Part shown: piece after piece, positions 1 through 16,091 of the stretch
How positions within the stretch are numbered: position 1 is the first letter of the stretch
How the letters are laid out: every line of letters starts with the position of its first letter
IMG/VR virus record: IMGVR_UViG_2690316028_000014
Coordinates: 1 to 17,345 of that record
Reading direction: 5' to 3' (one strand)
Source of the DNA: a virus
Taxonomy: Duplodnaviria > Heunggongvirae > Uroviricota > Caudoviricetes
DNA length: 17,345 nucleotides
Notes under the pieces: generated by a model
What the model was told of the DNA's origin: nothing
Databases searched by the model: none
Seen by the model: the letters and a program-made list of their open reading frames with translations, nothing else
Position numbers and translations under genes: made by a program

Positions 1-168
1 GACTCCGTTACGCTTGTTGATTAATCTGTGCGCCCACGCCACAGGCTCCGCTTCGAGAGATGCCAGCGCGATACGCGCCAGCGCCGAAGCCTCACCACAT
101 TGAACGTGGTCAGTTTCGATAATTTGCTGTAACTGCTCTTTGGTGAATTCTCTGGTAATAGTGCTCAT
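1..168 (-). CDS. Hypothetical protein, N-terminal fragment (gene continues past the left window edge)
   Basis: ATG at 166-168 (minus) preceded by GGGAGG at about 8 nt; 56 sense codons with no stop to the window edge (MSTITREFTKEQLQQIIETDHVQ...); follows the stop of the upstream gene by 3 nt. Not in the ORF track because it is truncated. Confidence 0.4.
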   Translation of the reverse strand, partial: MSTITREFTKEQLQQIIETDHVQCGEASALARIALASLEAEPVAWAHRLINKRNGV

Positions 169-171
169 AGG

Positions 172-390
172 TTAGTCCTCCCTGTACGGATTTAATTTGT
201 TGTGCAGTTTGTTAAACGGCCCCCATACGATGGAGCTATACCACTCAGCTATTTTTTCTGCCTGTTCTCCTGCTAACCAGATGAGGACTATCGGTGATAT
301 TGGAGCCATTAAAATAAGAAAGAGAAGGAAAAATAGAGCCTCTTTAACCCGACTTTGACGTGGATAATTCTTCCGGAATATTTTTGTCAC
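172..390 (-). CDS. Small membrane protein, hypothetical (72 aa)
   Basis: ORF-track ORF; start overlaps the upstream HNH stop (ATGA-type coupling); one strongly hydrophobic segment (ALFFLLFLILMAPISPIVLIWLA). Confidence 0.5.
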   Translation of the reverse strand: MTKIFRKNYPRQSRVKEALFFLLFLILMAPISPIVLIWLAGEQAEKIAEWYSSIVWGPFNKLHNKLNPYRED

Positions 391-764
391 AAGTTATCCC
401 CCTCTTGATACCGCTCGAACCGGAACACAACTGGTGCGTTAGTCTGTTTAACCAGGCCAAATGATTCCGCTGTGCGGTAACTTCTTGACGCACGGCGAGT
501 TACATCAACCTGAGTGGCTATGCGGCTGCGAAAGTCTTCTACTGTGCTGCACATTTTGAACAAGTTGCATGGAATGCATGCTGGAACCATGTTGCTGACC
601 GTGTCATTTTCTGGCCTGTCCATTGCGTAGCCGTTGCTGATATTTCTTCGTACCGCTTCTACATGGTCTGCATGCCACTTATCGCCAAGTTCACAGCCGC
701 AATAAGCACAGCGACCGCCAAACTTCATGCGCAGTTCTGCACGCTGTTTTTTCGTCAGTGCCAT
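387..764 (-). CDS. HNH endonuclease
   Basis: 125 aa with paired CxxC zinc ligands and His-rich core (GGRCAYCGCEL...WHADHVEAV...ACIPCN) typical of the HNH nuclease fold; part of the tightly packed minus-strand operon. Confidence 0.75.
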   Translation of the reverse strand: MALTKKQRAELRMKFGGRCAYCGCELGDKWHADHVEAVRRNISNGYAMDRPENDTVSNMVPACIPCNLFKMCSTVEDFRSRIATQVDVTRRASRSYRTAESFGLVKQTNAPVVFRFERYQEGDNL

Positions 765-765
765 C

Positions 766-1056
766 TCATTCCCCCTTCACGCCAATGCCAGCGGCGCGGA
801 GTGCTTCTATGAAAACATCAAGCCCCTGATTAAATCCGATAGCCTCATAAAACTGTTTTGTGTGCATGTCCGGTGAATTGCGATATTCGGGCAGCTTCAC
901 CGTCCGCGCCTCCAGTTCTGCTATGCGCTTCTCTGCGGCTTCCAGCTCATCCAGCAGCGCCAGTAAATCGCGAGTTGGTACCATGAAGTTCGGCATGAAG
1001 TTATCTTTTGCCTTTTCTGCTGTTAGGCGCAGCGCCTGTTTGTCGATGTTGCTCAT
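766..1056 (-). CDS. Hypothetical phage protein (96 aa, predicted coiled-coil segment)
   Basis: ORF-track ORF; ATGA start/stop overlap with the upstream gene; LLALLDELEAAEKRIAELEAR heptad-like stretch. Confidence 0.55.
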   Translation of the reverse strand: MSNIDKQALRLTAEKAKDNFMPNFMVPTRDLLALLDELEAAEKRIAELEARTVKLPEYRNSPDMHTKQFYEAIGFNQGLDVFIEALRAAGIGVKGE

Positions 1057-1559
1057 TGCGCGTCCCCCTTGCGAATCTGGGCGGCGATGTCTTCGAGTAC
1101 ACCATCAGCGAACGAGCGATCGAAATCGCCTTCCGGCGCATCATCCATAAACTCTGTGGAGGTCAGTATCATTCGTGCGATGTCCGCAGCGTTCTTCGCT
1201 GTGTCTTCGATAAACCCAGCCTCCCATGCAGCCAGCATTCGGTTGGCAACAAAGTGAGCGCCTTCCTTGTGGGCTTGCGCCCGCACTTCAGCCAGGAAAG
1301 CCTGGTACGCAGGAATCTGCAGCACAGCCAGAGCTCCGATAATCTTCTGTACTTCTGGATGGCATTGATCGTAATGAGCATCGGTGATGAACACCGCGTC
1401 ATTGTGAATTGCTTCAATTGCACTCAACTCCGCAGCCAGCGCCGCGCACTTGGCTTCAACCACGTTAAGGAGAGTCGTAACTTCTGCCGGTGACATATGC
1501 TCACCACAATCGGCATTCATCCTGGCGCTTTTAATCAGATCTTCGTATTTATTGCTCAT
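1053..1559 (-). CDS. Hypothetical phage protein (168 aa)
   Basis: Track ORF 1053..1616 trimmed to the internal ATG at 1557-1559, which overlaps the upstream stop (ATGA) and is preceded by GGGGGAGGG; no family recognised. Confidence 0.55.
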   Translation of the reverse strand: MSNKYEDLIKSARMNADCGEHMSPAEVTTLLNVVEAKCAALAAELSAIEAIHNDAVFITDAHYDQCHPEVQKIIGALAVLQIPAYQAFLAEVRAQAHKEGAHFVANRMLAAWEAGFIEDTAKNAADIARMILTSTEFMDDAPEGDFDRSFADGVLEDIAAQIRKGDAQ

Positions 1560-1900
1560 ACCCCTGCCCTCCCCCAAACCATCAATACTCGCTTCATCGC
1601 CGCGCTGTTGCGGCACTCCTGGCAGATCACGTTTGCCTCTGTACGCTGCACCAGCTTCGAATTTCCCTTCGGCATAGCCGGGATTGTTTCTGGTGCGTAT
1701 TTCATGCCGTAATCGGTCAGCCGATAAAGCCGCTGTCCGTGCTTGCCTTCGAACTCGATCAGGCCGTCTGCCAGCAGCGTGCTTAACGGGCCGGAAATCT
1801 TTTTGGTGGTCATGCCGATCATCCTGGCAATGAAAGCACTATTCAGGCCCGGGTTATTACGCAGGGCTGCAAGAATCTGCCCACGAATTGTTATGGTCAT
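1556..1900 (-). CDS. Putative winged-helix DNA-binding protein (114 aa)
   Basis: Track ORF 1556..1948 trimmed to the ATG at 1898-1900, which overlaps the DnaC-like stop (ATGA) and is preceded by AAGGGGG; N-terminal LNSAFIARMIGMTTKKISGPLSTLLADGLIE resembles wHTH regulators; C-terminal CQEC. Confidence 0.5.
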   Translation of the reverse strand: MTITIRGQILAALRNNPGLNSAFIARMIGMTTKKISGPLSTLLADGLIEFEGKHGQRLYRLTDYGMKYAPETIPAMPKGNSKLVQRTEANVICQECRNSAAMKRVLMVWGRAGV

Positions 1901-2769
1901 GCTGCCCCCTTGGAACGGTAAGAATCCCAGGTGAATGACAGCGTGCACCCGCCGCCGTCGCTCATGCGGTCAATAACACGCTCACTCACGAACGCTGCCA
2001 GTTCTTCTTTGGTCTGGTTGCTGATCAGGATGGTCGGCTTCATACGCTCATAACGGGTGTTGATGATTTCGAACATGATCAGCTTCTCGGCCTCGCTGCC
2101 GAACTGGACGCCAACTTCGTCGATGATCAAAAGGTCCGGAGTGGTGAAGTGCGCAATCACGTCGTTCTCGCAGCGCGTCGCTGTTTTCGACCACGTTGAT
2201 TTGAATTCGCGGGCAATCTTCAGCGCGGTGGTGAAAATTACCGGGCTCTGGTGGTTCTCGATGACATAACGGGCGATCGCCAGGGCGAGGTGGTTTTTAC
2301 CGGTTCCCGGCTTGCCGCACATCACCAGGCCACCACCCTGCTTCAGGCGCTCTGGCCACTTCGCGGCATACGCCTGGCAAACCCGCAGCGCGCGCTCTGA
2401 CTCCTTCCCCACCGGCTGATAGCTTTCCAGCGTGCACGTTACAAAGCGCTCAGGGATTTCGAGCTGGCGCAGCAGGCGATCGATGTTCTGCTGGCGCGTG
2501 CGGTCTTCCCACCGCTTTTTCTCGTCATACAGGAAGGTCAGCTCATCGCGAAGGCAGCCCGGACAACGAGTCGGCGGTGACGGCAGCTTGATCAGGCTGC
2601 TGGTAAGCACGCGTTTACGCTGTTCGTACTCGCCATGTTTCTCGCAAAGCACTGTTTCGAAGACGGTCTCGCAGTTAGGGAGCTGCTCTGGAGGTCTACC
2701 AAGGACTTCCAGCATTTTTTCGATAGCGTCGATTTTTTCGAGCAGTTCCATACTCAGTCCCTCGCCCAA
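1897..2769 (-). CDS. DnaC/IstB-like AAA+ helicase loader (replication protein, lambda P position)
   Basis: Walker A GKPGTGKNHLA and Walker B LLIIDEVG; N-terminal Cys pairs; lies immediately downstream of and overlapping the O-like initiator. Confidence 0.85.
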   Translation of the reverse strand: MGEGLSMELLEKIDAIEKMLEVLGRPPEQLPNCETVFETVLCEKHGEYEQRKRVLTSSLIKLPSPPTRCPGCLRDELTFLYDEKKRWEDRTRQQNIDRLLRQLEIPERFVTCTLESYQPVGKESERALRVCQAYAAKWPERLKQGGGLVMCGKPGTGKNHLALAIARYVIENHQSPVIFTTALKIAREFKSTWSKTATRCENDVIAHFTTPDLLIIDEVGVQFGSEAEKLIMFEIINTRYERMKPTILISNQTKEELAAFVSERVIDRMSDGGGCTLSFTWDSYRSKGAA

Positions 2770-3608
2770 GATGGAATTTCAGTCTGGCCATAGTCCTTGC
2801 CAGCGAAGTTCTCAGATACGCGAGACTGATTGCGGGCTGGCTGCTTGATGCCTTTCGGCTCAAACAATCCCTGCCAGCCGTTCGCAATGCTCTGGTTGAT
2901 GATTTCTTCAGGCTGATATCCGCTGCACTTGCAACGCTCGAGCAGGTTGATGGCCTGGGTAACCGTCTGCTGAGACTTGATCGGTTTCTTCAGGTCGCGA
3001 CGATAATCGACCCATGACTTCCAGACTGAAACTGACAGCCATTCAGGAAGCTCAACACCGGCCGGATCGAACGAAGCCGGTTTGGGGGATTTAGGGGGTT
3101 TATTAATATTGTCTTTATTGTCTTTTGTATGTTTGTCTTTTGTGTTTACCTGATTTGGGTAAGTGTCGTTACCTGATTCGGGTAAACATTTCTTACCTGA
3201 TACGGGTAAATTTACCTCTTTCAGGTAAACTTTGTTTTCGTTACCTGATTTGGGTAATTTCACCCATTCGCTGACCGATTTGTTAATGCCCACAGTTCGC
3301 CCGATTTGGGTAAACACCCCGCGCCTGACTAACGCACTTTTAGCCGCAGAGCATTTGTGTGGGAGGATTCCGGTCAGGGCAGATAACTGATCATTGCTTA
3401 CCCAGTCCGCCTTTTTGTTGAAACCGTATGTTTTGCGCATTACTGCCATGAAGACCAGCAGCTGATGCTGAGACAATCCAGCCAGCATGACAGCCTCCAG
3501 AAGTTCATTGGCGATGCGCGTATAGCCATCATCAAGATCTGCCACGCGCGGCTCCTTAGGTGCCACGTCAGGCACAGGGAAATTGATTACTTCGGCAGTG
3601 TTTGCCAT
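2754..3608 (-). CDS. O: Replication initiator, lambda O-like
   Basis: N-terminal region (ANELLEAV...LSQHQLLVFMAVMRKTYGFNKKADWVSNDQLSALTGI...KCSAAKSALVRRGV) matches the lambda O N-terminal domain family; iteron array and AT-rich tract lie inside the gene as in lambda; RBS GGAG before the ATG at 3606-3608. Confidence 0.85.
   Translation of the reverse strand: MANTAEVINFPVPDVAPKEPRVADLDDGYTRIANELLEAVMLAGLSQHQLLVFMAVMRKTYGFNKKADWVSNDQLSALTGILPHKCSAAKSALVRRGVFTQIGRTVGINKSVSEWVKLPKSGNENKVYLKEVNLPVSGKKCLPESGNDTYPNQVNTKDKHTKDNKDNINKPPKSPKPASFDPAGVELPEWLSVSVWKSWVDYRRDLKKPIKSQQTVTQAINLLERCKCSGYQPEEIINQSIANGWQGLFEPKGIKQPARNQSRVSENFAGKDYGQTEIPSWARD
3146..3313. repeat. Replication origin iterons (ori-lambda-like) inside the O-like gene, with adjacent AT-rich tract at about 3100-3145
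   Basis: Five to six copies of an internally palindromic 17-mer TTACCTGATNNGGGTAA at 3146-3162, 3169-3185, 3193-3209, 3212-3228 (degenerate), 3241-3257 and a partial copy at about 3299-3313; flanked by ttattaatattgtctttattgtcttttgtatgtttgtctttt. Confidence 0.7.
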
Positions 3609-3611
3609 AAT
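3583..3611 (+). promoter_or_regulatory. Candidate sigma70 promoter antisense to the O start (possible OOP-like antisense RNA promoter)
   Basis: TTGATT (3583-3588), 17-bp spacer, CATAAT (3606-3611) on the plus strand, reading into the cII-O intergenic hairpin at 3645-3677. Confidence 0.3.
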
Positions 3612-3690
3612 TGCTCCTGTGAATTGATCCAGTTAATTCCATCTGAAAGCCGTTGGTGTTACAGCACCGCGGCTTTCGCCCATTCTGCGT

Positions 3691-3912
3691 TCATGCTTCA
3701 AAATCTCCCTTCGCTCCATCCCGGTTAGAAATCAGGATGGCCAGCAGCAGCGACATGTTCGGTACCAGGCTCTCCTGCCAGCGGCTTACGGTTGATTTAT
3801 TTCTGCCAGCAACTTCAGCTATACGTGATATCCCCAGATCAGATATCTGGCTGCGTAACCAACTCTCTATCCTCCTAGCCTCCAATTTGTTGCGTGCGGT
3901 TGATGTCTCCAT
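3691..3912 (-). CDS. cII: CII-like transcriptional activator
   Basis: 73 aa; RIESWLRSQISDLGISRIAEVAGRNKSTVSRWQESLVPNMSLLLAIL parallels the lambda CII HTH core as recalled; RBS AGAGGAAG; located downstream of cro. Confidence 0.75.
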   Translation of the reverse strand: METSTARNKLEARRIESWLRSQISDLGISRIAEVAGRNKSTVSRWQESLVPNMSLLLAILISNRDGAKGDFEA

Positions 3913-3950
3913 TTGCGATACTTCCTCTGATTTAATTGGTTATGCCGCCA

Positions 3951-4184
3951 TTAGGCGGCGTTGTTGTCGATCGGTGATGGGAACAGCGTCGGTAAGTCAG
4001 GGCGAATCTGGTAGGCCTGAATTTCACCACCAGTTGCTTTCACGATGCTGTTCACATGCTCCGGAGAAACCTTTGCTTTGTTGTGTAGCCACTTGTAAAC
4101 CGCCTGCTGCGATACTGCGCATGCTTCACCAAGGGCTTTTTGAGACCCGACGATGGTAATGGCGGTTTTAATGGTTGGATTCAT
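3951..4184 (-). CDS. cro: Cro-like HTH repressor
   Basis: 77 aa HTH protein (QKALGEACAVSQQAVYKWL) transcribed divergently from cI across an operator-rich intergenic region; RBS GGAGG. Confidence 0.7.
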   Translation of the reverse strand: MNPTIKTAITIVGSQKALGEACAVSQQAVYKWLHNKAKVSPEHVNSIVKATGGEIQAYQIRPDLPTLFPSPIDNNAA

Positions 4185-4288
4185 AACAACCTCCGTAGTG
4201 AATATAAATGAAGAATAAAACTATGGTTGTATTTAGTCAACAACCATTTTCGTTTGATGAAATAAAACCACGGTTGTAGATTGCGTAT
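4185..4288. promoter_or_regulatory. Immunity switch (OR-like): back-to-back pR-like and pRM-like promoters with ACAACC/GGTTGT operator repeats
   Basis: 25-bp palindrome ATGGTTGT-N9-ACAACCAT at 4223-4247; further ACAACC/GGTTGT copies at 4187-4192 and 4273-4278; minus-strand promoter TTGACT (complement of 4235-4240), 17 bp, TATTCT (complement of 4212-4217); plus-strand TTGATG (4254-4259), 17 bp, TAGATT (4277-4282) ending 6 nt before the cI ATG with no SD. Confidence 0.6.
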
Positions 4289-5014
4289 ATGAAAACGACA
4301 CTCGCTGAAAGACTGAAGGAAGCCAGGACATTACGAGGCCTTACACAAAAGGCTCTCGGGGATCTGGTTGGGGTAAGCCAAGCTGCTATCCAGAAGATAG
4401 AAACGGGAAAAGCTAACCAGACAACAAAGTTGGTAGAGCTGGCAAATGCTTTGATGGTTAAACCTGAATGGCTAAGTTCAGGTGTTGGCCCCATGCGATC
4501 AGACGCTAAAGAATCAAATATTGGTCCTGAATCAGAGTGGGGAACTGTCGACGCATGGGACAAAAACACCCCGCTTCCTGCTGACGAGGTTGAAGTGCCT
4601 TTTCTTAAGGATATTGAATTTGCTTGTGGCGATGGACGCGTTCAATGCGAGGATCACAATGGCTTTAAGCTCAGGTTCTCAAAGGCAACCCTCCGACGCG
4701 TTGGAGCTAATACAGATGGGTCTGGCATCCTGTGCTTCCCTGCTACTGGCGACAGTATGGAACCCGTAATACCGGATGGTACGACTGTAGCCGTCGATAC
4801 GAACAACAAACGCATAGTTGATGGGAAACTGTATGCCATTGGTCAGACAGATGGCGGGAATGGTCAACTCAAGCGCATTAAACAGCTGTATCGTAAGCCA
4901 GGCGGAAAGCTAATTATCCGCAGCTACAACAATGAGGCCTACCCTGATGAAGAAGCTGACATTGATGATGTTGAGATAATCGGCCGCCTCTTCTGGTACT
5001 CGGTATTGCTGTAG
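4289..5014 (+). CDS. cI: CI-type prophage repressor (HTH_XRE N-domain plus S24 LexA-like peptidase C-domain)
   Basis: N-terminal HTH (LTQKALGDLVGVSQAAIQKIETGK); C-terminal GDSMEP with Ser156 and Lys195/198 at lambda-CI-like spacing; candidate Cys113-Gly114 autocleavage site. Confidence 0.9.
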   Translation: MKTTLAERLKEARTLRGLTQKALGDLVGVSQAAIQKIETGKANQTTKLVELANALMVKPEWLSSGVGPMRSDAKESNIGPESEWGTVDAWDKNTPLPADEVEVPFLKDIEFACGDGRVQCEDHNGFKLRFSKATLRRVGANTDGSGILCFPATGDSMEPVIPDGTTVAVDTNNKRIVDGKLYAIGQTDGGNGQLKRIKQLYRKPGGKLIIRSYNNEAYPDEEADIDDVEIIGRLFWYSVLL

Positions 5015-5118
5015 CGGTGGCCTGAAGAGACGTTTGGTTAAGGCCAGCAACGGATCACAACAAACACATGGGGCGGCGGATTAAGGGTGATGGAGAATCG
5101 AAATAAGTTGAGGTCAAC

Positions 5119-5274
5119 ATGAACACGTTCAGCATAATCGCGATACCTTTTTTTGCCCTTTCAGTGGTTCTGTTGACTCTTGGCGCTACCAGGAAGAACC
5201 AAGCCAGCTTCATCGTTGGCGGCGTGTTTATGGCGTCATGCGTGGTTAATGCCATTATCGGCATGTCTCTTTGA
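5119..5274 (+). CDS. Small hydrophobic membrane peptide (51 aa, two predicted TM segments)
   Basis: ATG at 5119 with GAGG 5 nt upstream; MNTFSIIAIPFFALSVVLLTLGATRKNQASFIVGGVFMASCVVNAIIGMSL; below the ORF-track size cut-off; about 100 bp downstream of cI. Confidence 0.4.
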   Translation: MNTFSIIAIPFFALSVVLLTLGATRKNQASFIVGGVFMASCVVNAIIGMSL

Positions 5275-5466
5275 GCGCTATGAGATCAGGCATCCTCGTT
5301 ACTTTGTCATGTGTGACAGCCTGGTATGCACTCTGCGAGCTTTGATGTGGTTTACCACTTTAATAGTCACCGTATCACTAAACTGATTAGCTTTACTCAT
5401 ACTCTTGTGGATTCGCTATTTCTGATGTCAATGCAAAAAAATACTAAGGAAACAAAAAGGATACTT

Positions 5467-5733
5467 ATGTCAGATAACACTATTAAAATCATACCTCAGC
5501 ACATGACCGCCACATCAGTTCTTATTACGCCTGATCGTGCTGAAACAATCATTACTTTTTACCGCCATGAATTTGAGCATCACATGCAGTCTGATGAGCA
5601 AGGAAAGAATAGCTTCCAAGTAAAAGTTGAGTTGACCCCTAACATGTCAGTCTCAATGAGCCCGGATCAAGCTGTTGCATTAGTAAAATCATTACAGGTA
5701 GCTCTCAGGGATAATGGGCTATGGAAAGACTGA
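5467..5733 (+). CDS. Hypothetical protein (88 aa) in the AT-rich cI-adjacent island
   Basis: Track ORF 5326..5733 trimmed to the ATG at 5467 preceded by AAAAAGGA; visibly AT-rich coding sequence; no recognised family. Confidence 0.5.
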   Translation: MSDNTIKIIPQHMTATSVLITPDRAETIITFYRHEFEHHMQSDEQGKNSFQVKVELTPNMSVSMSPDQAVALVKSLQVALRDNGLWKD

Positions 5734-6371
5734 AGCCAGTTTCTTCAGTTCAACCTACCTCAGGAACAACATCATCAGTTCTTCCAAGTATTATAGTTAG
5801 TGCAACCCTAGCAGCGACAACCGTTTCTCCTTATGGGGATCCATCTCAGTACCAAAGTATTGGTATTGATGCTAAGGTATCAAATAGAGTTTCATACGCC
5901 ATGGACGAAACGGGTTTGCGCCCAAGTAAGGAAGATGTAGCGATGAAGAGTGATACCCTGGAGGTAAGCGTGAGCGGAATGTCCAGAGAAGAACTTGACG
6001 CAAAGCTTTCACAAAACAAATCAGAGGTAGAGTCTATTGCTGCGGAAATGCGTCGCGAATCAGCTGACTTTAAAACCTATTATACTCAGCAATTTTCTTC
6101 TATTGAGAGAGGTATTGCTGAAATTAAAGGTGAAATCGGCGGTTTGAAAACGGGACTTACAACGACTCAGTGGGCGATGGCCGTTGGCTTGACTTTAGTT
6201 ACTGTGATTCTGTCTGGCGTGATGTTAGCCTCAAGTTGGATTATCTCCGGCAATGACAAGTCACCATCAGTAACCAGCCCGGCTCCAATTATAATACAGG
6301 TACCGACACAGCAACCATTAACGAGCGCTCCAACTAACCAATCGTCATCACAACAAGCTCCTAAGCAATAA
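5721..6371 (+). CDS. Membrane-anchored protein (216 aa): S/T-rich N-region, coiled-coil, C-terminal TM helix, S/T/Q/P-rich tail
   Basis: Long open frame in AT-rich DNA; start overlaps the upstream stop by 13 nt; alternative internal start at about 5944 with strong RBS TAAGGAAG; TM segment WAMAVGLTLVTVILSGVMLASSWII; followed directly by a terminator. Confidence 0.6.
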   Translation: MERLKPVSSVQPTSGTTSSVLPSIIVSATLAATTVSPYGDPSQYQSIGIDAKVSNRVSYAMDETGLRPSKEDVAMKSDTLEVSVSGMSREELDAKLSQNKSEVESIAAEMRRESADFKTYYTQQFSSIERGIAEIKGEIGGLKTGLTTTQWAMAVGLTLVTVILSGVMLASSWIISGNDKSPSVTSPAPIIIQVPTQQPLTSAPTNQSSSQQAPKQ

Positions 6372-6376
6372 ATAAA

Positions 6377-6403
6377 CCCGGCCACCGCGCCGGGTTTTTA
6401 TTT
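6377..6403. terminator. Bidirectional Rho-independent terminator
   Basis: CCCGGC-cacc gc-GCCGGG hairpin (6377-6394) followed by TTTTTATTT on the plus strand and preceded by AAATAAATAAA (U-tract for the minus strand); ends both the plus-strand island and the minus-strand 68-aa ORF. Confidence 0.75.
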
Positions 6404-6604
6404 GCCCTTCCGTACCATCTCAGCCGCATCCCGTAGCACCCCCTTGTGGATCACGTTCCCGACGGCTTTACGCTTCCCTTCCAGAAATCCCACAATGTTG
6501 TCTTTGTTGATCTCAATCCCGTTGTAAATCAGTTCGAACACCACACACCCAACCTCTCCAGCCATGAAGGCCATCCGGTCATCTGCAAGTTCATCACGTT
6601 CCAT
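6398..6604 (-). CDS. Hypothetical protein (68 aa), convergent with the cI island
   Basis: Track ORF 6398..6958 trimmed to the ATG at 6602-6604 with GGGGGTGG upstream; E. coli-like codon choice; the longer N-terminal extension runs through AT-rich promoter DNA and is rejected. Confidence 0.5.
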   Translation of the reverse strand: MERDELADDRMAFMAGEVGCVVFELIYNGIEINKDNIVGFLEGKRKAVGNVIHKGVLRDAAEMVRKGK

Positions 6605-6688
6605 AGCCACCCCCTGATGTTTTTTGCAGCATAGCACCAATCTTTTATAAAAATAAATTCCTTTTAAATACAACCAAATAAAACCAAA

Positions 6689-6742
6689 ACAACTATAAAT
6701 ACAACTATTGTTGTTGACGATAAAACAACTATGGTTTTTAAT
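6689..6742 (+). promoter_or_regulatory. OL/pL-like operator-promoter cluster driving the early-left (recombination-int) operon
   Basis: Three direct ACAACTAT copies at 6689, 6701 and 6725 (12- and 24-bp phasing) plus an inverted GTTGTTG; promoter TTGACG (6714-6719), 17 bp, TTTAAT (6737-6742); shares CTATGGTT with the OR region. Confidence 0.5.
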
Positions 6743-7287
6743 AAGTCCATCGAAACGAAACATCGACAGCTGAGCGAAGTTAGCCAGCGGCGGACAGCAA
6801 GTCGCCTGCTTCTTTAACAAATCAGACTGAGTGACAGGCAAGCCGTAGCTCTCCTGGCAAAAAGAAATGGCACCCGATGGGATCGAGGTAAGCACTGAGT
6901 CCGTATGCGTACGGTAGGTGTAGAGGACCACGCTGCGATGAGCTGATAAGTCACTCAATTTGAAGCGCTCCGATGATGGGGCGCTGATTCAACTTAGAGG
7001 AGTGATTCCAATGAAGAACTAAAGCGGACAGACCGCAGCCTAAAGGCAATGCAGCAGTAATGATGCCGCCCTGAGTCGCCGAATGGCGAGCCTGTGTAGT
7101 GATGGGTCAAGGTTCTTATATCAAAACAAGCTCCGGTAAAGCAGCGCGAACGCCAGACGCGCACCGGTTATGAGCGGCGATGAGCGACAAGGTCTCAAGG
7201 GCATGTGCGCGGCCACTGCGAGAGTGTGGCGAAGTTTACCAGCAGCTCTTTGCGAGGGGCTGACGGTAAACAAAAAGAGGAGTGTGT

Positions 7288-7629
7288 ATGGCAGATAAAA
7301 AAACGGCGCCACTACTGCTTAACGTAGACGCCAGCGAGGTACTTACTCAGACCGGGGAGCTTTTAAAGTTACTTGAACTTCCAGCCAGTTCCTTTCAGGG
7401 AATTCCTGAGCATGTCGTCGATCTGTTTTTTGACCGTGTCCGTGGCCTGATTGACAACATCGTCCTTAGTGATTTCTCGACCACAGTCAGCACAACTGAC
7501 GCCGGTGAAATTTGTCTCAAAGTCAAAATCATCGGGCTGGTTGAACATCTCACTTCCGCAGTCAGGGCACACGGTCCGCATGGTTTGCATGAATATATCC
7601 TTTCTACTGTTGGGGAGATTAAAGAGTAA
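7288..7629 (+). CDS. Hypothetical protein (113 aa), first ORF of the early-left operon; mutually exclusive with the antisense zinc-ribbon ORF
   Basis: Strong RBS GAGGAG 5 nt before the ATG at 7288; on the strand transcribed from the pL-like promoter; Leu codons mostly CTT/TTA, so it could be a shadow of the minus-strand ORF. Confidence 0.35.
   Translation: MADKKTAPLLLNVDASEVLTQTGELLKLLELPASSFQGIPEHVVDLFFDRVRGLIDNIVLSDFSTTVSTTDAGEICLKVKIIGLVEHLTSAVRAHGPHGLHEYILSTVGEIKE
7369..7590 (-). CDS. Candidate zinc-ribbon protein (73 aa), antisense to the 7288-7629 ORF
   Basis: CPDCG-(19 aa)-CADCG four-Cys motif; RBS AAAGGA 7 nt before the ATG at 7588-7590; host-preferred codons; the Arg-rich N-terminal extension in the track (to 7821) is rejected. 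Confidence 0.35.
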   Translation of the reverse strand: MQTMRTVCPDCGSEMFNQPDDFDFETNFTGVSCADCGREITKDDVVNQATDTVKKQIDDMLRNSLKGTGWKFK

Positions 7630-7848
7630 GCGATTTCTTGCTGTTGGGGAATAGCGGGAAAGCGCGCGCCGGGCGCGGATAAATACCCCGGCACTAACTG
7701 GAATGTTTTGGGCTGGCAGACGGTTATCAGCTAGTTGGTGAGGTAATGGCTCACCAAGGCGACGACGGCCTTCCCTGCTGCTTGAAAGCGGGGAGCCAGC
7801 ACCAAAACATTTCTCCCGCATCAGCGGGTAACGACAGAGGGTAAGGGT

Positions 7849-8094
7849 ATGTCAGATAAGCAGGTTCAACTGTCTGGTAAATGCGTCTTGAAGATAGACA
7901 CCATCAAAGGCAGCAGCACTATCGAAATACCAAAAGTGAATCTCAGCGGCAAAAACAATGCAGACGCTTTGCTTAATGAAGTGTTCCATTTTGGAGTAAT
8001 GCGTCACGGGAAAAACAAGCTTCGCGAAATGCTTGAAGAGAAGCTTGATGGCTACGGGGAAGAGTACGAAAACCATGGCCTCACTTACGACTGA
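7849..8094 (+). CDS. Hypothetical early protein (81 aa, acidic C-terminus)
   Basis: RBS AGAGGGTAAGGG before the ATG; immediately followed by an intrinsic terminator. Confidence 0.6.
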   Translation: MSDKQVQLSGKCVLKIDTIKGSSTIEIPKVNLSGKNNADALLNEVFHFGVMRHGKNKLREMLEEKLDGYGEEYENHGLTYD

Positions 8095-8115
8095 CCCGCT
8101 CCGGCGGGTTTTTTA
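8095..8115 (+). terminator. Rho-independent terminator (tL1-like)
   Basis: CCCGC-tccg-GCGGG hairpin followed by TTTTTT; a second hairpin GGCAGA-N8-TCTGCC follows at 8129-8148. Confidence 0.7.
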
Positions 8116-8255
8116 TCGGCCATACATAGGCAGATTTTCGAGTCTGCCCATTTATGACAACCGGCGGCCATCCACCGCCCATTGAAACACTGAATAAATG
8201 CGTTGAAGTCTTGTATTAACCGTTCCGTTCGCCGCGATAAGGCCAAGAGGAAATC

Positions 8256-8384
8256 ATGGTAAACCAGCAGCAGATCAGAGAGGCCCAACGGCTCGCGTCG
8301 TTCGCGGTGCTCCATCGCAATGCTCCGGCGTGGGAAGAAGCAATACGCCTTTACGCCGTCGCCATCGGGAGGACTCTTCACTGA
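8256..8384 (+). CDS. Small ORF (42 aa), translationally coupled to the downstream gene
   Basis: ATG at 8256 with GAGGAA just upstream; stop TGA overlaps the next ATG (TGATG at 8382-8386); MVNQQQIREAQRLASFAVLHRNAPAWEEAIRLYAVAIGRTLH. Confidence 0.3.
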   Translation: MVNQQQIREAQRLASFAVLHRNAPAWEEAIRLYAVAIGRTLH

Positions 8385-8581
8385 TGGAAACTTTATTCGC
8401 ACTCGTCCTGACCGTGGCAATGACCAACGGTGATTATCAGGATGTCATTCTCGGCGTTTACGACAGCCAGCAGGAATGCAGCCTGGCAGCTACAGAGCAG
8501 AAAGTGTCAGCTGAGTGCTGGCCGGTAGAAAGCATCATCCGCAACGGCGAGTTCCCGGCGAAATCCATCGCGCAGCAGTAA
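8384..8581 (+). CDS. Hypothetical small protein (65 aa; hydrophobic N-terminus, acidic)
   Basis: Track ORF 8330..8581 trimmed to the ATG at 8384; METLFALVLTVAMTNGDYQ...; occupies the position lambda uses for kil/cIII-type genes. Confidence 0.5.
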   Translation: METLFALVLTVAMTNGDYQDVILGVYDSQQECSLAATEQKVSAECWPVESIIRNGEFPAKSIAQQ

Positions 8582-8651
8582 CCACCCTATTCAACCGATC
8601 GGCCTGGCTCAATGCGGGCGGGATCTGCACATCCAAATTTCAGGAGAAACC

Positions 8652-9620
8652 ATGAGCGAAGTAACGGATTTAGTCGTCATTGAGAAACAGAACGCAATGG
8701 CGGTGTTTACCAGTAAGGAACAGCTCGATCCGATTATCGAGGCCATCGAGAAAGAAGCTCGTACCCTGGTACCCGATCTGACTACGAAGAAAGGTCGCGA
8801 CGCGATCGCATCCATGGCGCATAAGGTTGCCCGCTCCAAAACCTATATCGACAACGCCGGCAAGGATCTGGTTGCCGAGCTTAAAGCCCTGCCGAAGCAG
8901 ATCGACGAAAGCCGCCGCATTGTGCGTGAGCGGCTGGACGCGCTGAAGGATGAAGTACGGCGCCCGCTCACAGAATGGGAAGCCGAGCAGGAACGCATTA
9001 AGGCTGAAGAAGCCATGAACGCGATGCACGCCGAAGCGCTGGAGATGAACATCAGGTTCGATCAGGAGCTGGCTGCCAAGTTCGAAGCGGACCACGAAAT
9101 GGCCCTGCTGATGAACAAGGATTTCGACCGTGACCGCGAAGAGCAGCGCCGCCTGGCGGAACAGGCTCAACGCGAGCACGAAGAGCGCATTAAGCAGGAA
9201 GCAGCTGACAAAGCCAAGCGCGAAGCCGAAGAGAGGCATAAAGCGGAATTGGATGCTGCAGCACGTCGCGAAGCTGATGAGAAAGCTCGCGCTGATGCCG
9301 CCGAGCGTAAGCGCAAAGAAGATGCTGACCGTGCAGAACGTGAGAAGCAGGACGCAATCGCAGAAGAAAAACGCAAAGCGCAGGAAGAAGCAGATCGCAT
9401 CAAGCGCGAAGCTGAAGCTAAAGAGAAAGCCCGTCTGGCCGAAGAGCAGCGCAAAGTTGAAGAAGAAGCGCGCCGCGCCGCAGACAAAGAGCACCGCCGC
9501 ACCGTCAACCGTCGCGTCATCGCCGACCTTATAGCTCAGGGCATCCCCGAAGAATTCGCGCAGAAAGCACTGCTGGCGATCGCTGGCGGCAAAGTGCAGG
9601 ACGCGCACATCAAATATTGA
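8652..9620 (+). CDS. Phage protein with conserved-looking N-domain and a long ER/K-rich charged helix (322 aa)
   Basis: RBS AGGAG; about 170 aa of E/R/K/A-rich sequence (KAEEAMNAMHAEALE...EEKRKAQEEADRIKREAEAKEKARLAEEQRKVEEEARR); the antisense track ORF 8670..9644 is a shadow. Confidence 0.8.
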   Translation: MSEVTDLVVIEKQNAMAVFTSKEQLDPIIEAIEKEARTLVPDLTTKKGRDAIASMAHKVARSKTYIDNAGKDLVAELKALPKQIDESRRIVRERLDALKDEVRRPLTEWEAEQERIKAEEAMNAMHAEALEMNIRFDQELAAKFEADHEMALLMNKDFDRDREEQRRLAEQAQREHEERIKQEAADKAKREAEERHKAELDAAARREADEKARADAAERKRKEDADRAEREKQDAIAEEKRKAQEEADRIKREAEAKEKARLAEEQRKVEEEARRAADKEHRRTVNRRVIADLIAQGIPEEFAQKALLAIAGGKVQDAHIKY

Positions 9621-9627
9621 GGCAACC

Positions 9628-9912
9628 ATGAACGCATACCTCACTTATGACCGCATCGAAGATCGGCGCTGGGCTGAACAGCAGCTCACCGACGAGAAAG
9701 AGAAGTGGATCGACGACCGGGCGCAACAAATCATCGACATGATGCCAAAAGAGCCGTCCGGCCTCTTCCACTTCTCCGTACCGATTGACGCCAGTCCATA
9801 CGAAGGACTTCGCAGCGATAAAGCTGGCGAGGCCTACAACGATTTCATTTCGGCAGTTGCTTACGCCCAGGCGGAATACGACTGGGAACACCGTACCGGC
9901 TGCCCATTTTAA
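9628..9912 (+). CDS. gam: Gam-like RecBCD inhibitor
   Basis: 94 aa; MNAYLTYDRIEDRRWAEQQLTDEKEK...LFHFSVPID parallels the lambda GamS N-terminus as recalled ([30 protein letters not shown]...LFESLCID); sits immediately upstream of bet. Confidence 0.8.
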   Translation: MNAYLTYDRIEDRRWAEQQLTDEKEKWIDDRAQQIIDMMPKEPSGLFHFSVPIDASPYEGLRSDKAGEAYNDFISAVAYAQAEYDWEHRTGCPF

Positions 9913-9930
9913 TTTTTGAGGGGATTAACG

Positions 9931-10776
9931 ATGGCAAACGAATTAACAATCACAGCGACGTCGCTTCAGGAGATAGGCGTCGACGTCTCCACCTGGAGCG
10001 CGCTGAAGAACAGCATCTATCCTGGCGCCAAAGACGAATCGGTAATGATGGCGCTTGACTACTGCCGCGCCCGCCATCTGGATCCGTTGCTCAAACCTGT
10101 CCACCTCGTTCCGATGTACGTCAAAGACTCGAAAACAGGTAAAGGCGAATGGCGCGACGTCGTCATGCCGGGCATCGGACTTTACCGCATTCAGGCAGAC
10201 CGCTCCGGCGATTATGCCGGGGCTCGCGAGCCCGAGTTCGGGCCCGACGTAACTCAGACGCTTACTGGTGTCGAGGTGACCTTCCCTCAGTGGTGCAAAT
10301 ACACCGTTTTCAAGCGCATGCCCAGCGGCGAGATCGTCGAGTTCAGCGCTAAAGAATACTGGATTGAAAACTACGCCACCGGCGGACGTGACACCACGGC
10401 GCCGAACGCGATGTGGAAAAAACGCCCGTATGGACAGCTGGCGAAATGCGCAGAAGCCCAGGCGTTGCGCAAGGCATGGCCTGAGATTGGACAGCAGCCT
10501 ACTGCAGAAGAAATGGAAGGCAAATCGCTGGACGTTGATATTCGTGACGTCACCCCGCGCAGCACCACAGAAGCGCTTCCACCAGCAGCAAGCGAAGAAA
10601 CACTTCAGGCGATCACCGATCTCTTAACATCGCTGAATAAAGACTGGGAGCAAGACTTCCTCCCAGTGTGCAGCGACATCTTCAAACGGCCAATTCTTGA
10701 GGCGTCAGACCTCACTGAAGAAGAGGCACAGAAAGGGTTCAACTTCCTTCAGAAAAAAGCTAAGGCGGCAGCATGA
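9931..10776 (+). CDS. bet: Bet/RecT-family single-strand annealing protein
   Basis: C-terminus [40 protein letters not shown] parallels the lambda Beta C-terminus as recalled; start set at the ATG at 9931 (RBS GAGGGGA) rather than the track TTG at 9916; followed by exo with ATGA overlap. Confidence 0.85.
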
Positions 10777-11453
10777 CACCCGAAATTATCCTGGCCAGGA
10801 CCGGCATTGATGTGTCCACCGTAGAGCAAGGTGATGAAGCATGGGCCAAATTAAGGCTCGGAGTTATCACCGCCTCTGAAGTGCACAACGTAATATCCAA
10901 GCCGCGCTCCGGCACCAAATGGACGGGCATGAAGATGTCCTACTTCCACACCCTACTCGCCGAGGTATGCACCGGCGTCGCGCCAGAGGTTAACGCCAAG
11001 GCTCTGGCCTGGGGAAAGCAGTACGAGGAAGACGCCCGCACCCTCTTCGAGTTCACCACCGACGTGAAAGTCACGGAGTCTCCGATCCTGTTCCGTGACG
11101 AGAGCATGCGCACCGCGTGCTCCCCTGACGGCCTTTGCAGTAACAATTTCGGCCTCGAATTGAAATGTCCGTTCACCTCCCGCGACTTCATGAAATTCCG
11201 CCTCGGCGGTTTCGAAGCCATTAAGTCAGAGTACATGGCCCAGGTGCAGTACAGCATGTGGGTGACCGGGAAAGAAGCCTGGTTCTTTGCCAACTACGAC
11301 CCGCGCATGAAACGCGAAGGTATTCACCACGTCGTCGTTGAGCGGGATCCGCAGTACATGACCGATTTCAACGAAATGGTGCCGGAGTTCATTGAGAAGA
11401 TGGACGAGGCGCTGGCGGAAATCGGCTTCACGTTCGGGGAGCAGTGGAAATGA
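10773..11453 (+). CDS. exo: YqaJ/lambda-Exo-like recombination exonuclease
   Basis: 226 aa, called by its position as the partner immediately downstream of bet, with ATGA translational coupling at both ends; family assigned from this context and general sequence character, not from verified motifs. Confidence 0.8.
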
Positions 11454-11878
11454 AACGCGCACCCTTTTACCGCAGGCCAGGGCGAACCTGGCAATTCTCT
11501 GGCCTCCGTGAGCGCGTTATCTGGATGATTCAGACGCGAGGCCGCCCGGTAACCGGTAGCGAAATCGCTGAGAAGTTTGGCGTAACCCTGATCGAGTTTA
11601 ACCGGGTCGCCAACGGCATCACCCGCGGCTCCGGACAGATAGCTCAGATCGTTGAGTCGGAAAAATGGCTCAACGAGGACGGCATCTGCGACCGGACATT
11701 TGACCTGGTAACGAAGCCAAAGGTCATTACACCGCAGGGAAAATCACGGCTATTCACCCGGCGCGCCATTGAGCAGTCGCAGGAAGGCAGACGGCAGGAA
11801 TGCATTGAACGTGCAGCACGCCGTCGCCGCCTGATTGCTCAGGGCCTCTACATCGACGAAATGGAGTCCATCCTATGA
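11450..11878 (+). CDS. Hypothetical protein (142 aa)
   Basis: ATG at 11450 overlaps the exo stop; in-frame GTG at 11444 is the track start; possible HTH-like segment ([22 protein letters not shown]). Confidence 0.6.
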
Positions 11879-12027
11879 CTCACGCTCACGACGACATCAG
11901 GGTAGGCACATTGTGCCTTCCCTTCATTGGTCACGGCTGGCTAATGCCATGGGGTGAAGTGGTCAGCAATCCATTAAAGGCGCAGCGGCTCGCTGAGGAA
12001 TATCGGGAAAGGCAGGAGGCGGCATGA
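11875..12027 (+). CDS. Small ORF (50 aa) coupled at both ends (ATGA/ATGA)
   Basis: ATG at 11875 overlaps the upstream stop and its own stop overlaps the methyltransferase ATG at 12024; GGAG 8 nt upstream; [50 protein letters not shown]. Confidence 0.35.
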   Translation: MTHAHDDIRVGTLCLPFIGHGWLMPWGEVVSNPLKAQRLAEEYRERQEAA

Positions 12028-14216: not shown

Positions 14217-14458
14217 TGATGAAGCTGATTAATCGCAGTAAGCAATCACCTATTGGTCGCCGCGCTTGCGATGTTGCGCTGGCGGCGCACCACGCAAAAT
14301 ATGGCGATTACGGCAGGCAGAAGCACCAGACAAATTACACCGTTGAGGTGGATGGCATGAAGGTCACCGTCGAAGTCGTCAACCGGGCCACCAGCTATGT
14401 CGCCACAGCAATGATCGGCGTTCGTAAACTTCGAAACCTGCCAGCACAGGCACACTGA
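14216..14458 (+). CDS. Hypothetical protein (80 aa)
   Basis: ATG at 14216 overlaps the methyltransferase stop (TGATG); GGGAG 8 nt upstream; track start at 14213 is an in-frame GTG. Confidence 0.55.
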   Translation: MMKLINRSKQSPIGRRACDVALAAHHAKYGDYGRQKHQTNYTVEVDGMKVTVEVVNRATSYVATAMIGVRKLRNLPAQAH

Positions 14459-14499
14459 ATAACAATGACGGCCCCGACTGGGGCCACTGGAGAACATCG

Positions 14500-14847
14500 A
14501 TGGACGAAGAAGTATTTACCAGAGATGAGGCCGCCGCCTTCCTTAAAGTGGATAAAGGCACGATTGCCCAGTGGATAAAGTCCGGTCGCCTGGCTGCTAC
14601 CCGAAAAAATCCACATAAGAAAAAAAGCCCATACCTGATCTGCAAAACAGACTGTATTGCGGCAGTGAAGAACCCGATCCACAATCAACCTGTGAATGCG
14701 GTTGATGTGCAGGAGGATAAAGCATGTCAATCAAACAACGTGCCGGTACGTGGCACTGCGACTTCGTTACGCCTGGTGGAAGTCGAATTAGACGGTCTCT
14801 TGGGACAACGGACAAAAGGCAAGCGCAGGAGCTCTATGATCAGCTGA
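14500..14847 (+). CDS. xis: Excisionase (Xis/AlpA-type HTH)
   Basis: N-terminal [26 protein letters not shown] matches the excisionase-family HTH; directly upstream of int, overlapping its start by 124 nt in another frame. Confidence 0.6.
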
Positions 14848-15887
14848 AAGCTGAAGCATGGCGAGTTGATAAGATGGGGGAGTTTAAGCCGCGAACGTTC
14901 GATGAAGCGTGCGTTCGCTGGCTTAACGAAAAGCAGCACAAGAAAAGCCTGGACGATGACAAAAGCCGGATCGGATTCTGGAGGATGCACTTCAAAGGAA
15001 TGGACCTGTCAGCAATCACGGAAGACAGGATCTTGTCGGCGGTGAGTTCGATGGTTAATCGCAAACATCGAATGAACTGGGAGGCTAAACGGGACAGCCT
15101 GCTGCGAAGAGGTAAGCCGGTTCCTGAATTTAAGGATAAACCAGCGTCGCTGGCGACGAAGGCGACGCACCTTGCTTTCATCCGGGCGCTGTTACGATGC
15201 GCGGCCAACGAATGGCGATGGATAGCCAAAGCGCCGAACATCAAATGCCCGGTGCCGAAAAATAAGCGTATTCGCTGGCTAACCAAAGAGGAAGCGGCGA
15301 ACCTGATCCGGGAGCTTCCCGAGCATATGAAGCCAGTTGTTATTTTTGCACTGGCGACAGGGCTGCGCAGATCGAACATCACCGATCTGGAGTGGTCACA
15401 AATTGATATGCAGAGGAAGGTCGCGTGGATTCACCCCGAGGACGCGAAAGCAGGAAGGGCGATTGGGGTCGCCCTGAACGAATCGTCCTGTAAGGTGCTG
15501 CGGGAGCAACTGGGGAAACATAACCGTTGGGTCTTTGTTCACACTGAATCATCCGTTCGCCCGGATGGAACGAGAACAAAGGCAGTGCGCAAAATGCGGT
15601 CTGATGCTAACACGGCATGGCGCGCGGCGTTAAGGCGGGCGGGAATAGAAAATTTCCGCTTCCATGACCTGCGGCACACCTGGGCAAGCTGGCTTGTACA
15701 GTCCGGCGTGCCACTCAGTGCGCTACAGGAAATGGGCGGGTGGGAAAGTATCGAGATGGTGCAGCGTTATGCGCATCTGGCACCGAATCACCTGACGCAG
15801 CATGCCATGCAAATCGACTCATTCCTGGCGGGGAATGGCACAAATATGGCACAAGGCGCTTTTGCTGAACTGGTGAATATCGCGTGA
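14724..15887 (+). CDS. int: Tyrosine integrase (P22-like)
   Basis: 387 aa; RBS AGGAGG; catalytic signature [15 protein letters not shown] ... VQRYAHL (R-H-R-Y family); ends 15 bp from the tRNA-Thr 3' end. Confidence 0.9.
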
Positions 15888-15901
15888 ACCCGCGTGGTTA
15901 G

Positions 15902-15977
15902 TGGTGCCGATAAGAGGAGTCGAACCTCCGACCTTCGCATTACGAATGCGCTGCTCTACCAACTGAGCTATATCGGC
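15902..15977 (-). tRNA. thrW: tRNA-Thr (anticodon CGU)
   Basis: Reverse complement reads GCCGATATAGCTCAGTTGGTAGAGCAGCGCATTCGTAATGCGAAGGTCGGAGGTTCGACTCCTCTTATCGGCACCA: 7-bp acceptor stem, D-loop AGCTCAGTTGGTAGAGC, anticodon loop TTCGTAA, T-arm GGTTCGA, encoded CCA. Confidence 0.9.
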
Positions 15978-16091
15978 CCTGAAAGGACATGTTCACGAAC
16001 GTGAATCACGGTGGACAAGGTTAAAACTAACCGGGCGATGCGTCAATGGCCTTGTGAATCAAATGGCTACTTTTGCATCACCCGGTTTTAT

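Follow-up and report, generated by a model that had tools for sequence, protein, structure and literature searches.

Which genes fill the interval between the lysogeny repressor gene and the OL operators of a lambdoid prophage, the place held by rexA and rexB in phage λ, and what could they do for the lysogen? We addressed this question in a 17,345-nucleotide (nt) stretch of DNA, the virus record IMGVR_UViG_2690316028_000014 (positions 1–17,345; hereafter the window), which is the left part of a lambdoid prophage of E. coli at tRNA-Thr(CGT) (15902–15977, minus strand), next to proA. The immunity region of this prophage is bounded by the OR cluster (4217–4277) on the left and by the OL operators (6701–6738) on the right, and inside it segment 5015–6400, between cI and OL, takes the λ rexA–rexB position. 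The segment carries three open reading frames (ORFs), orf51, gp49 and gp48, on the strand of cI and downstream of it, where an original prediction made from the letters had placed them (Table 1). We found that gp49 and gp48 are, by their arrangement, a translationally coupled pair whose pairing appears obligate, and that relatives of this pair are wired to lysogeny repressors of several kinds. An exclusion or abortive-infection role is plausible from the position and modularity of the pair, and we put at roughly 35% the probability that gp49/gp48 are a two-component, lysogen-expressed, membrane-tethered exclusion system that follows Rex-like logic with different parts.

The gp49–gp48 pair and the repressors ahead of it

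Our survey of genomic context covered about 25 distinct types of pair, each made of a gp48-like gene and its partner, from viral contigs, phage records and genomes, with the repressors checked by Pfam. All but one of these pairs lie directly downstream of a lysogeny repressor gene and in the same orientation, at gaps of 25–290 nt. The repressors comprise S24-type CI proteins of several unrelated sequences, CI proteins of 127–132 amino acids (aa) with only a helix-turn-helix (HTH) domain, and Mnt. The exception is a Xenorhabdus pair (L004), which stands in a myovirus-type prophage beside an Arc-like gene and a KilA-N antirepressor gene, with no repressor directly upstream. In the P22-like prophages L040, L037 and L078 the pair follows Mnt (Arc and Repressor_Mnt domains), the gene order being tailspike, Ant, Arc, Mnt, partner and gp48-like, and then a convergent large ejection-protein-like gene; the order in the P22 region is sieA-orf59a-mnt (PMC10461980). 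In HK542 and HK244, which have a λ-like cI, PRM and PL, a homologous pair stands in place of rexAB, and the RexAB position beside cI that had been proposed for our segment is confirmed both by the cI–OL slot here and by these two phages. One HK542-like pair (L065) has an extra DUF3024 gene (1601–1942) between the repressor gene and the partner gene.

The pair adjoins the repressor gene in most relatives and looks like an operon extension, not a separate transcription unit. From the short gaps, with no terminator between repressor gene and pair in most cases, co-transcription of the two in the lysogen is probable, and the cI gene of the window is the presumed head of an operon carrying orf51, gp49 and gp48. 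The cI–N interval has already been treated in the literature as a hotspot for lysogen-expressed accessory and defence genes, and the other cargo of the cI–PL slot consists of defence or toxin systems, namely rexAB, bstA and the HicAB of mEp234.

A linkage this tight fits a regulatory role equally well, and the pair could serve the lysogen in a way unrelated to other phages, by tuning prophage maintenance or induction, as 434 Hex, or by acting in host envelope physiology or fitness; the variable head of gp48 described below would then track partners in the host or prophage and not enemy phages. The likeness of gp48 to tail-anchored coiled-coil scaffolds of the CCDC90-like/DUF1640 kind and the lack of matches in the defence database, both set out below, agree with such a function. 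However, the identical HK97 block serves at least five different repressors, and since members of the family go with CI repressors that have S24, with others that lack it, and with Mnt, it is unlikely that the role depends on RecA-mediated cleavage of a single type of repressor. A sporadic distribution, a low G+C and the swapping of cassettes are furthermore typical of accessory conflict genes, not of core regulation. We regard a function in the lysogen other than phage exclusion as possible, if somewhat on the unlikely side.

A partner ORF lies immediately ahead of every gp48-like gene that we examined. The two are at most 75 nt apart and share at most 14 nt; overlaps of 4, 8, 13 or 14 nt occur in about half of the distinct pairs, and the gp49 stop codon overlaps the gp48 start by 13 nt. 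We found no hydrophobic segment in gp49, as expected of the soluble 88-aa protein that had been described. It defines partner class A1 (PHROG 26809). The others are classes A2/A4 (PHROG 4231), class A3, the zinc-ribbon class A5 (PHROG 4293), class B, whose proteins have 143–162 aa and are apparently all-beta (PHROG 5893), and a further type in Sodalis. hhalign connects classes A1–A4 with one another by way of A4, at probabilities of 95.8%, 94.4% and 70.5%, and the same kind of profile–profile comparison left class B and A5 unlinked to A1–A4. In Sodalis sp. dw_96 (L091, 2459–3372) a 130-aa HTH repressor is followed by a 146-aa partner, which shares 4 nt with the gp48-like gene. Databases differ in the start chosen for gp49, giving 88, 102 or 135 aa (5425–5733 and 5326–5733 for the longer readings); homologues from Klebsiella and other contigs use the 88-aa start or one close to it, and conservation does not reach into the upstream extension.

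gp48 conforms to the earlier description of a 216-aa protein with a coiled coil, one C-terminal transmembrane helix and a tail rich in Ser, Thr, Gln and Pro. Its single hydrophobic stretch lies at about residues 150–177. The AlphaFold2 model, built on a nine-homologue alignment, has a disordered region at 1–85, a long helix at 89–142 with predicted local distance difference test (pLDDT) values of 85–90, a second helix at 148–177, and a disordered tail. The coiled coil at 89–142 carries the conserved motif SREELDAKLxxNKAEVE, and direct reading of the sequence finds the 3–4 hydrophobic spacing unbroken from Leu92 to Leu146; by general coiled-coil rules, the Ile-rich core positions and the conserved Asn99 suggest a trimer. 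The tail bears a conserved PIIIQVP motif. Because 150 hydrophilic residues without a signal peptide precede the single helix, we infer that the N-terminus of gp48 is cytoplasmic and its tail periplasmic.

The gp48 family, which belongs to Enterobacterales phages, came to 203 proteins at E ≤ 1e-3 in a profile search of 1.84 billion representatives, and to 107 when the limit was set at E ≤ 1e-10; almost all have 130–270 residues. A word-indexed search found few relatives of gp48/gp49, in Citrobacter, Yersinia, Xenorhabdus, Kosakonia and Klebsiella, and a narrow peptide-pattern scan of genome contigs found three gp48-like loci, in Sodalis, Yersinia aleksiciae and Buttiauxella. The family alignments show a hypervariable N-terminus and a strongly conserved start of the coiled coil ([ST]REE[LI][DE]A[KR]LxxNKAE[VM]). 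The coiled coil varies in length, contains IDGKxD-type repeats in the longer members, and continues into the membrane helix. When HK97 is compared with the copies in Klebsiella, Yersinia, Kosakonia and Xenorhabdus, the synonymous sites are saturated, the proportion of synonymous differences (pS) being 0.70–0.90 and that of non-synonymous differences (pN) 0.24–0.46; gp48 against its relatives gives pN 0.30–0.46 and pS 0.70–0.79, and gp49 against the Klebsiella copy pN 0.24 and pS 0.90. Judged by these substitution patterns, gp49 and gp48 are real genes under purifying selection. Such selection and the size of the family argue against non-functional leftover ORFs. A coiled coil with one membrane helix also occurs in some lysis accessory proteins such as XhlA, and the pair might on that ground be misplaced lysis-type proteins of the holin, XhlA or spanin-like kind. 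But location and orientation are tied to repressors and not to lysis cassettes, and we found no XhlA, holin or spanin match in Pfam for gp48 at E ≤ 1 or for 126 family members at E ≤ 0.001; we consider lysis-type proteins and leftover ORFs alike to be extremely improbable.

The N-terminus of gp48 tracks the partner class. It contains RLKVxGGSDFEAEF in all class B pairs, VSATLxA with A1 partners and MPAYHEKV with A3 partners. The alignment score per residue of the N-terminus is 1.70 within a partner class and 0.44 between classes, and that of the C-terminal part 2.41 and 1.42, respectively; the within-class scores are inflated by relatedness, and the between-class contrast holds. The gp48-like proteins of L080, which follows CI, and L078, which follows Mnt, are 92% identical from residue 45 to the end, whereas their first 44 residues and the partner proteins have no similarity at all. 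The partner and the N-terminal peptide of gp48 are, to judge from these comparisons, exchanged as one cassette on a conserved stalk. Joint exchange is what would be expected if the two made up one functional head, most simply through direct binding. The notion of a sensor plus a membrane effector, which the original prediction had put forward for all three ORFs, gains from this co-exchange on a conserved membrane stalk; it does not extend to a three-gene unit.

At the other end of the protein, the tail motif P-I/V-I-I-Q-V/M-P is kept in most of the family, divergent members included, and Gln150 at the membrane interface is invariant in 10 diverse members. Both features would suit superinfection exclusion at the entry step, in which the periplasmic PIIIQVP tail and the helix of gp48 interfere with the DNA-injection conduit of incoming phages in the manner of P22 SieA, HK97 gp15 or T4 Imm, the cells survive, and gp49 serves as an assembly or regulatory partner. 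The pair indeed occupies the P22 sieA slot in P22-like prophages, and the known entry blockers are small prophage-expressed inner-membrane proteins (PMC10461980). Yet prediction places about 150 of the 216 gp48 residues, and all of the partner, in the cytoplasm. The exchanged parts lie there too, which would be unexpected if specificity lay in the periplasm. The gp48-like proteins of L080 and L078 end 1–4 residues past the membrane helix and have no periplasmic tail, and the known blockers act singly, SieA alone being sufficient (PMC10461980). We consider an entry block unlikely.

orf51 and the origin of the block

orf51 agrees with the peptide of 51 aa and two hydrophobic segments that had been described, and is annotated neither in HK97 nor in RefSeq E. 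coli. We found 35 clusters of homologues at 67–98% identity, nearly all of exactly 51 residues, in Raoultella, Atlantibacter, Enterobacter, Kosakonia, Lelliottia and Klebsiella. Against three of these homologues, 26 of 38, 35 of 54 and 35 of 54 differences fall at codon position 3, and synonymous codon changes outnumber non-synonymous ones; by this bias, orf51 is a protein-coding gene under purifying selection. We rejected the alternative of a spurious ORF on the fixed length of the homologues and the position-3 substitutions. The relatives of orf51 are mostly found among ordinary chromosomal genes, or else close to tail genes, but away from repressors, and none of the other gp48-like pairs is accompanied by an orf51 homologue. 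In L013 we counted 11 differences in 5076–5254 and none in 5255–6376, and a recombination joint therefore lies exactly at the 3′ end of orf51. The segment is thus best described, on the available comparisons, as two independent modules, orf51 and the gp49/gp48 pair, that travel together in E. coli, with orf51 a putative stand-alone two-helix inner-membrane protein.

Could all three ORFs nevertheless form a single three-component system, with orf51 as its second membrane subunit? All 52 of the 52 E. coli genomes with orf51 have it inside the island, and the three ORFs share one strand and one strong terminator. Besides the L013 joint, the solitary relatives in chromosomal, non-prophage neighbourhoods and the lack of orf51 at other gp48-like loci, the codon composition speaks against it, G+C at third codon positions (GC3) being 0.60 in orf51 and 0.36–0.39 in the other two genes. 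We hold such a system to be very improbable, and the three-gene island of the original prediction falls apart on the same observations. As regards the search for the trio beside unrelated cI genes that had been proposed, the HK97 block stands behind at least five different repressors, and other gp48-like pairs lack orf51. In two of the P22-like prophages (L040, 4431–4658; L037, 4398–4625) the gp48-like gene is followed on the same strand by a 75-aa ORF with two hydrophobic segments, which has no Pfam match and is unrelated to orf51.

The block as a whole is well represented in the databases. Over 5017–6406 its identity is 99.6% with phage HK97, whose annotation names the two larger ORFs Gp49 and Gp48, and 100% with HK225. 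We found the block in 53 of 5,426 complete E. coli genomes, chromosomal and in single copy in all of them, and the exact proteins also in Citrobacter and Salmonella records, labelled 'hypothetical protein' throughout. The block is not new sequence: genes 49 and 48 are already in the HK97 genome record (GenBank AF069529). The earlier statement that the ORFs belong to no recognisable family stands as regards function; as genes they are HK97 gp49 and gp48 and fall in PHROGs 26809 and 5820.

The G+C content of 5093–6371 is 43.4%, the lowest of any 1,279-nt interval in the prophage (mean 52.5%, standard deviation 4.0; 0.07% of intervals are as low). It is low in gp49 (41.2%, GC3 0.39), in gp48 (44.4%, GC3 0.36) and in the spacer 5275–5466 between orf51 and gp49 (39.6%), and is not low in orf51 (48.1%). 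The AT-rich block that had been estimated by eye at about 40% G+C is real relative to its flanks, with the figure corrected to 43.4% and orf51 excepted. The spacer gave no Rfam match, and its RNA fold is no better than that of shuffled sequence (z = +1.36).

Directly after the stop codon of the window's own cI one reads RWPEETFG-stop, which is the end of an HK97-type cI gene; the repressor was therefore joined to HK97-derived DNA at the 3′ end of cI, and the remnant at 5018–5041 is, from its sequence, the scar of that recombination. Identity with mEp234 and HK106 stops at 5092/5093. These two phages share the HK97-type cI end, and their cI–PL slot holds HicA, HicB and one further ORF, not orf51-gp49-gp48 (the mEp234 HicAB segment is L090, 2589–3719). 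The right-hand joint falls just past the terminator, the HK97-type flanks diverging directly after the hairpin and identity with HK97 ending at 6406, so that the mosaic joints of the block are 5017/5093 on the left and about 6392–6398 on the right. Among 21 viral contigs with an identical gp48, at least five different repressors lie ahead of the block and two different neighbours follow it on the right.

The strong bidirectional terminator that had been foreseen at the end of the block is present as a 9-bp hairpin called on both strands. It would end both the cI-side transcript and a convergent leftward ORF and mark the right edge of the island. A sigma-70 scan, which also missed PRM, found no promoter-like site on the plus strand between cI and gp49 (5015–5466). 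Of the moron layout suggested for the block, the terminator, the distinct composition and the mosaic boundaries are in evidence, and the layout is left unconfirmed by the result of the promoter scan.

Candidate mechanism and comparison with known systems

In the two-component exclusion system that we favour, gp48 would lie for the most part in the cytoplasm, held in the inner membrane by its C-terminal helix, and would oligomerise via the coiled coil that runs straight into this helix. The variable N-terminal 45–90 residues of gp48 would combine with soluble gp49 into an exchangeable recognition head. On meeting, at the cytoplasmic face of the membrane, a component of a superinfecting phage, this head would pass a signal down the stalk. 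The conserved stalk, helix and tail would then disturb the membrane or block a step close to it, so that the infection would abort. We infer the physical contact of gp49 and gp48, the oligomeric state of gp48, the co-transcription with cI, and any anti-phage activity with its execution.

λ RexA and RexB, proteins of 279 and 144 aa, exclude T4 rII and other phages abortively, with loss of membrane potential. They resemble gp49/gp48 in the cI–OL/PL slot, the strand shared with cI, the terminator at the end and the order of a soluble protein before a membrane protein, and differ from them in having no sequence relationship. gp49 has 88 aa and no Pfam match, gp48 combines a long coiled coil with a single helix at the C-terminus, and the proteins are much smaller. 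RexA carries DUF4747 and RexB has four membrane helices (PMC6426596). We rejected a RexAB relative, as there is no DUF4747 in either the 88- or the 135-aa reading of gp49 (Pfam, E ≤ 1), no RexB match, and a single helix in gp48. The mycobacteriophage Sbash (gp30/gp31) and CarolAnn (gp44/gp43), a phage of Gordonia, have lysogenically expressed two-gene defence systems made of a cytoplasmic component and a small membrane protein, for which sensing of specific phage proteins and collapse of membrane potential have been proposed (PMC6426596). The two-gene Rex-type logic recurs in them, but they have RexAB-like domains (DUF4747 and four helices), neither of which is found in gp49/gp48.

P22 SieA, a prophage-expressed inner-membrane protein, is comparable in that P22-like relatives have the pair directly behind Mnt, with immI on one side and the ejection-protein genes on the other, as P22 has sieA. 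SieA acts alone, whereas the partner is obligatory here; the comparison with SieA is one of slot and description, and we know of no Pfam model for it. HK97 gp15, T4 Imm, Tuc2009 Sie2009 and TP-J34 Ltp are likewise small, membrane-associated, prophage-made proteins that stop superinfection by blocking DNA entry, gp15 being a moron in the tail region of the very phage that carries gp48/gp49. They differ as single proteins encoded elsewhere, without a coiled-coil stalk or an exchangeable cytoplasmic head. BstA of BTP1 and HicAB of mEp234 share the place directly downstream of a prophage repressor and a presumably shared promoter, but the proteins are unrelated, BstA being a single large protein and HicAB a classical toxin-antitoxin pair.

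Pfam and NCBIfam gave no meaningful match for gp48, orf51 or the 88-aa reading of gp49, and PHROGs gave matches of unknown function only for the three proteins and their relatives. The PDB, searched by sequence and by profile with gp49, the gp48-family profiles and the class B partners, gave nothing beyond coiled-coil noise (best E = 0.02). The profile hidden Markov model check for known lysis, structural or housekeeping functions that had been proposed thus yielded no confident homology in Pfam, NCBIfam or the PDB profile searches. A type II toxin-antitoxin pair was rejected: the overlap is present, but neither Pfam nor NCBIfam finds a toxin or antitoxin domain. A marginal PADLOC match to PDC-S52 (E = 0.0095) concerns only the N-terminal extension of the 135-aa reading of gp49, which looks untranslated.

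The CCDC90-like family PF07798 (formerly DUF1640), which includes MCUR1/CCDC90B and bacterial relatives, has the same order of a coiled coil followed by a C-terminal membrane helix. Sub-threshold matches to it occur in 31 of 126 gp48 family members (best E = 2e-8). gp48 itself scores 12.6 bits and L079, the sole such match among 10 members scored individually, 20.2 bits, both below the gathering score of 33.5, the remaining matches being known by E-value only; L079 aligns to model positions 57–173 of 175. We rejected membership on these two scores and on the competition of generic coiled-coil families such as Baculo_PEP_C. The likeness of gp48 to this family is one of architecture, not of membership, and a bacterial DUF1640 match would in any case explain nothing about function.

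Several observations weigh against the exclusion system that we favour. None of 15 family members matches a model in PADLOC-DB v2.0.0, there being no match for gp48, the 88-aa gp49, orf51 or 10 diverse relatives, and the pair contains no enzymatic or known pore-forming domain. The structure models are of low confidence, with a mean pLDDT of 52 for gp48 and of 47 for gp49, whose beta-beta-alpha model from three sequences is unreliable, and they are too weak for fold comparison. One membrane helix per gp48 chain is a thin basis for a channel, and a conserved periplasmic tail with a variable cytoplasmic head could equally mean sensing outside and output inside. The scan for σ70-type promoters, which called none on the plus strand of 3900–7400, PRM included, is silent on the promoter of the pair, and a weak hairpin at 5249–5264 is the sole hairpin between cI and gp49/gp48. 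HK97 has been under study ever since its genome appeared, and the literature searched, which left out some key HK97 and prophage-defence papers, makes no statement on the function of HK97 gp48/gp49 and ascribes no exclusion phenotype to genes 48/49.

A variation on the theme takes the tail-anchored, probably trimeric coiled-coil stalk and its plug-in heads, with at least four unrelated partner folds, as an unrecognised, fairly large, repressor-wired anti-phage family of new design, whose mechanism would differ from the four-helix channel of the Rex type and from the single-protein block of the SieA type alike. Phages would exchange the heads as cassettes, and the proteins would act at the face of the membrane where incoming genomes arrive. 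We think this quite doubtful as a full description.

Surroundings of the pair and meaning of the finding

The features of the immunity region and of the early genes are collected in Table 1. The total of ACAACnnnnGTTGT-like sites over the whole window is not above chance; the sites nonetheless cluster at OR and OL, and direct reading of the sequence finds a rightward PL-like TTGACG...TTTAAT at the OL operators.

Table 1. Positions of the repressor-linked block and of neighbouring features in the window
Feature	Position	Strand	Basis or remark
DnaC-like loader	1897–2769		leftward-reading early gene
O	2754–3608		leftward-reading early gene
cII	3691–3912		leftward-reading early gene
cro	3951–4184	−	leftward-reading early gene
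OR-type operator cluster, ACAACnnnnGTTGT-like sites	4217–4230, 4240–4253, 4264–4277		between cro and cI; pattern search
cI-type lysogeny repressor, 241 aa, HTH_3 + Peptidase_S24	4289–5014	+	Pfam: S24 E = 3e-16, HTH_3 E = 2e-11
Leftover 3′ end of HK97-type cI, WPEETFG-stop, 24 nt	5018–5041	+	translation; alignment with HK97 and mEp234; repressor survey
orf51, putative 51-aa membrane protein, two hydrophobic helices, short basic loop TRKN	5119–5274	+	GAGG ribosome-binding site 5 nt upstream
AT-rich spacer between orf51 and gp49	5275–5466	+	192 nt
gp49 (HK97 gene 49), 88 aa, soluble, partner class A1	5467–5733	+	HK97 identity; PHROG 26809
gp48 (HK97 gene 48), 216-aa predicted tail-anchored membrane protein	5721–6371	+	HK97 identity; PHROG 5820
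Bidirectional intrinsic terminator, AAACCCGGCCACCGCGCCGGGTTT	6374–6397	both	9-bp hairpin, 6 G-C, T-runs on both strands; terminator scan
OL-type operators	6701–6714 (perfect palindrome), 6725–6738		pattern search
Integrase	14724–15887		

Beyond the terminator, a 72-aa ORF (6398–6616, minus strand; HK225_042) converges with gp48 and uses the same terminator; it belongs to PHROG 3975, of unknown function, and its Klebsiella counterpart bears DUF2767. A minus-strand promoter-like site (6720..6692) overlaps the OL operators, and this ORF may for that reason be repressor-controlled and read away from PL. Further to the right, a 322-aa protein (8652–9620, plus strand) is very rich in Glu, Lys, Arg and Ala and has no Pfam match; depositors labelled its Klebsiella phage counterpart 'TolA protein'. 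In the early-left operon, the domains of a C5-cytosine DNA methylase (PF00145) and of a D12-class N6-adenine methylase (PF02086) are fused in a single 730-aa ORF (12024–14216, plus strand), a double orphan methyltransferase.

What appears to be new here is the definition of the gp48 family, the rule that its members follow a repressor or Mnt, the evidence for head exchange, and the separation and validation of orf51, by which the annotation of HK97 gains a missed small-protein gene. HK97 is a model phage, yet its repressor-adjacent genes 48 and 49 have no assigned function, in a slot between cI and PL that elsewhere houses rexAB, bstA and further exclusion systems. Two 'hypothetical proteins' become a defined family with a conserved membrane stalk, swappable heads and a regulatory address that stays fixed, and the domain swaps that nature provides, as between L080 and L078, open the way to specific and cheap experiments in E. 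coli K-12. If gp49/gp48 do protect against phages, they would be an analogue of RexAB without homology to it, remarkable for the simplicity of the membrane part, and could help to explain how Rex-type systems couple sensing to the membrane.

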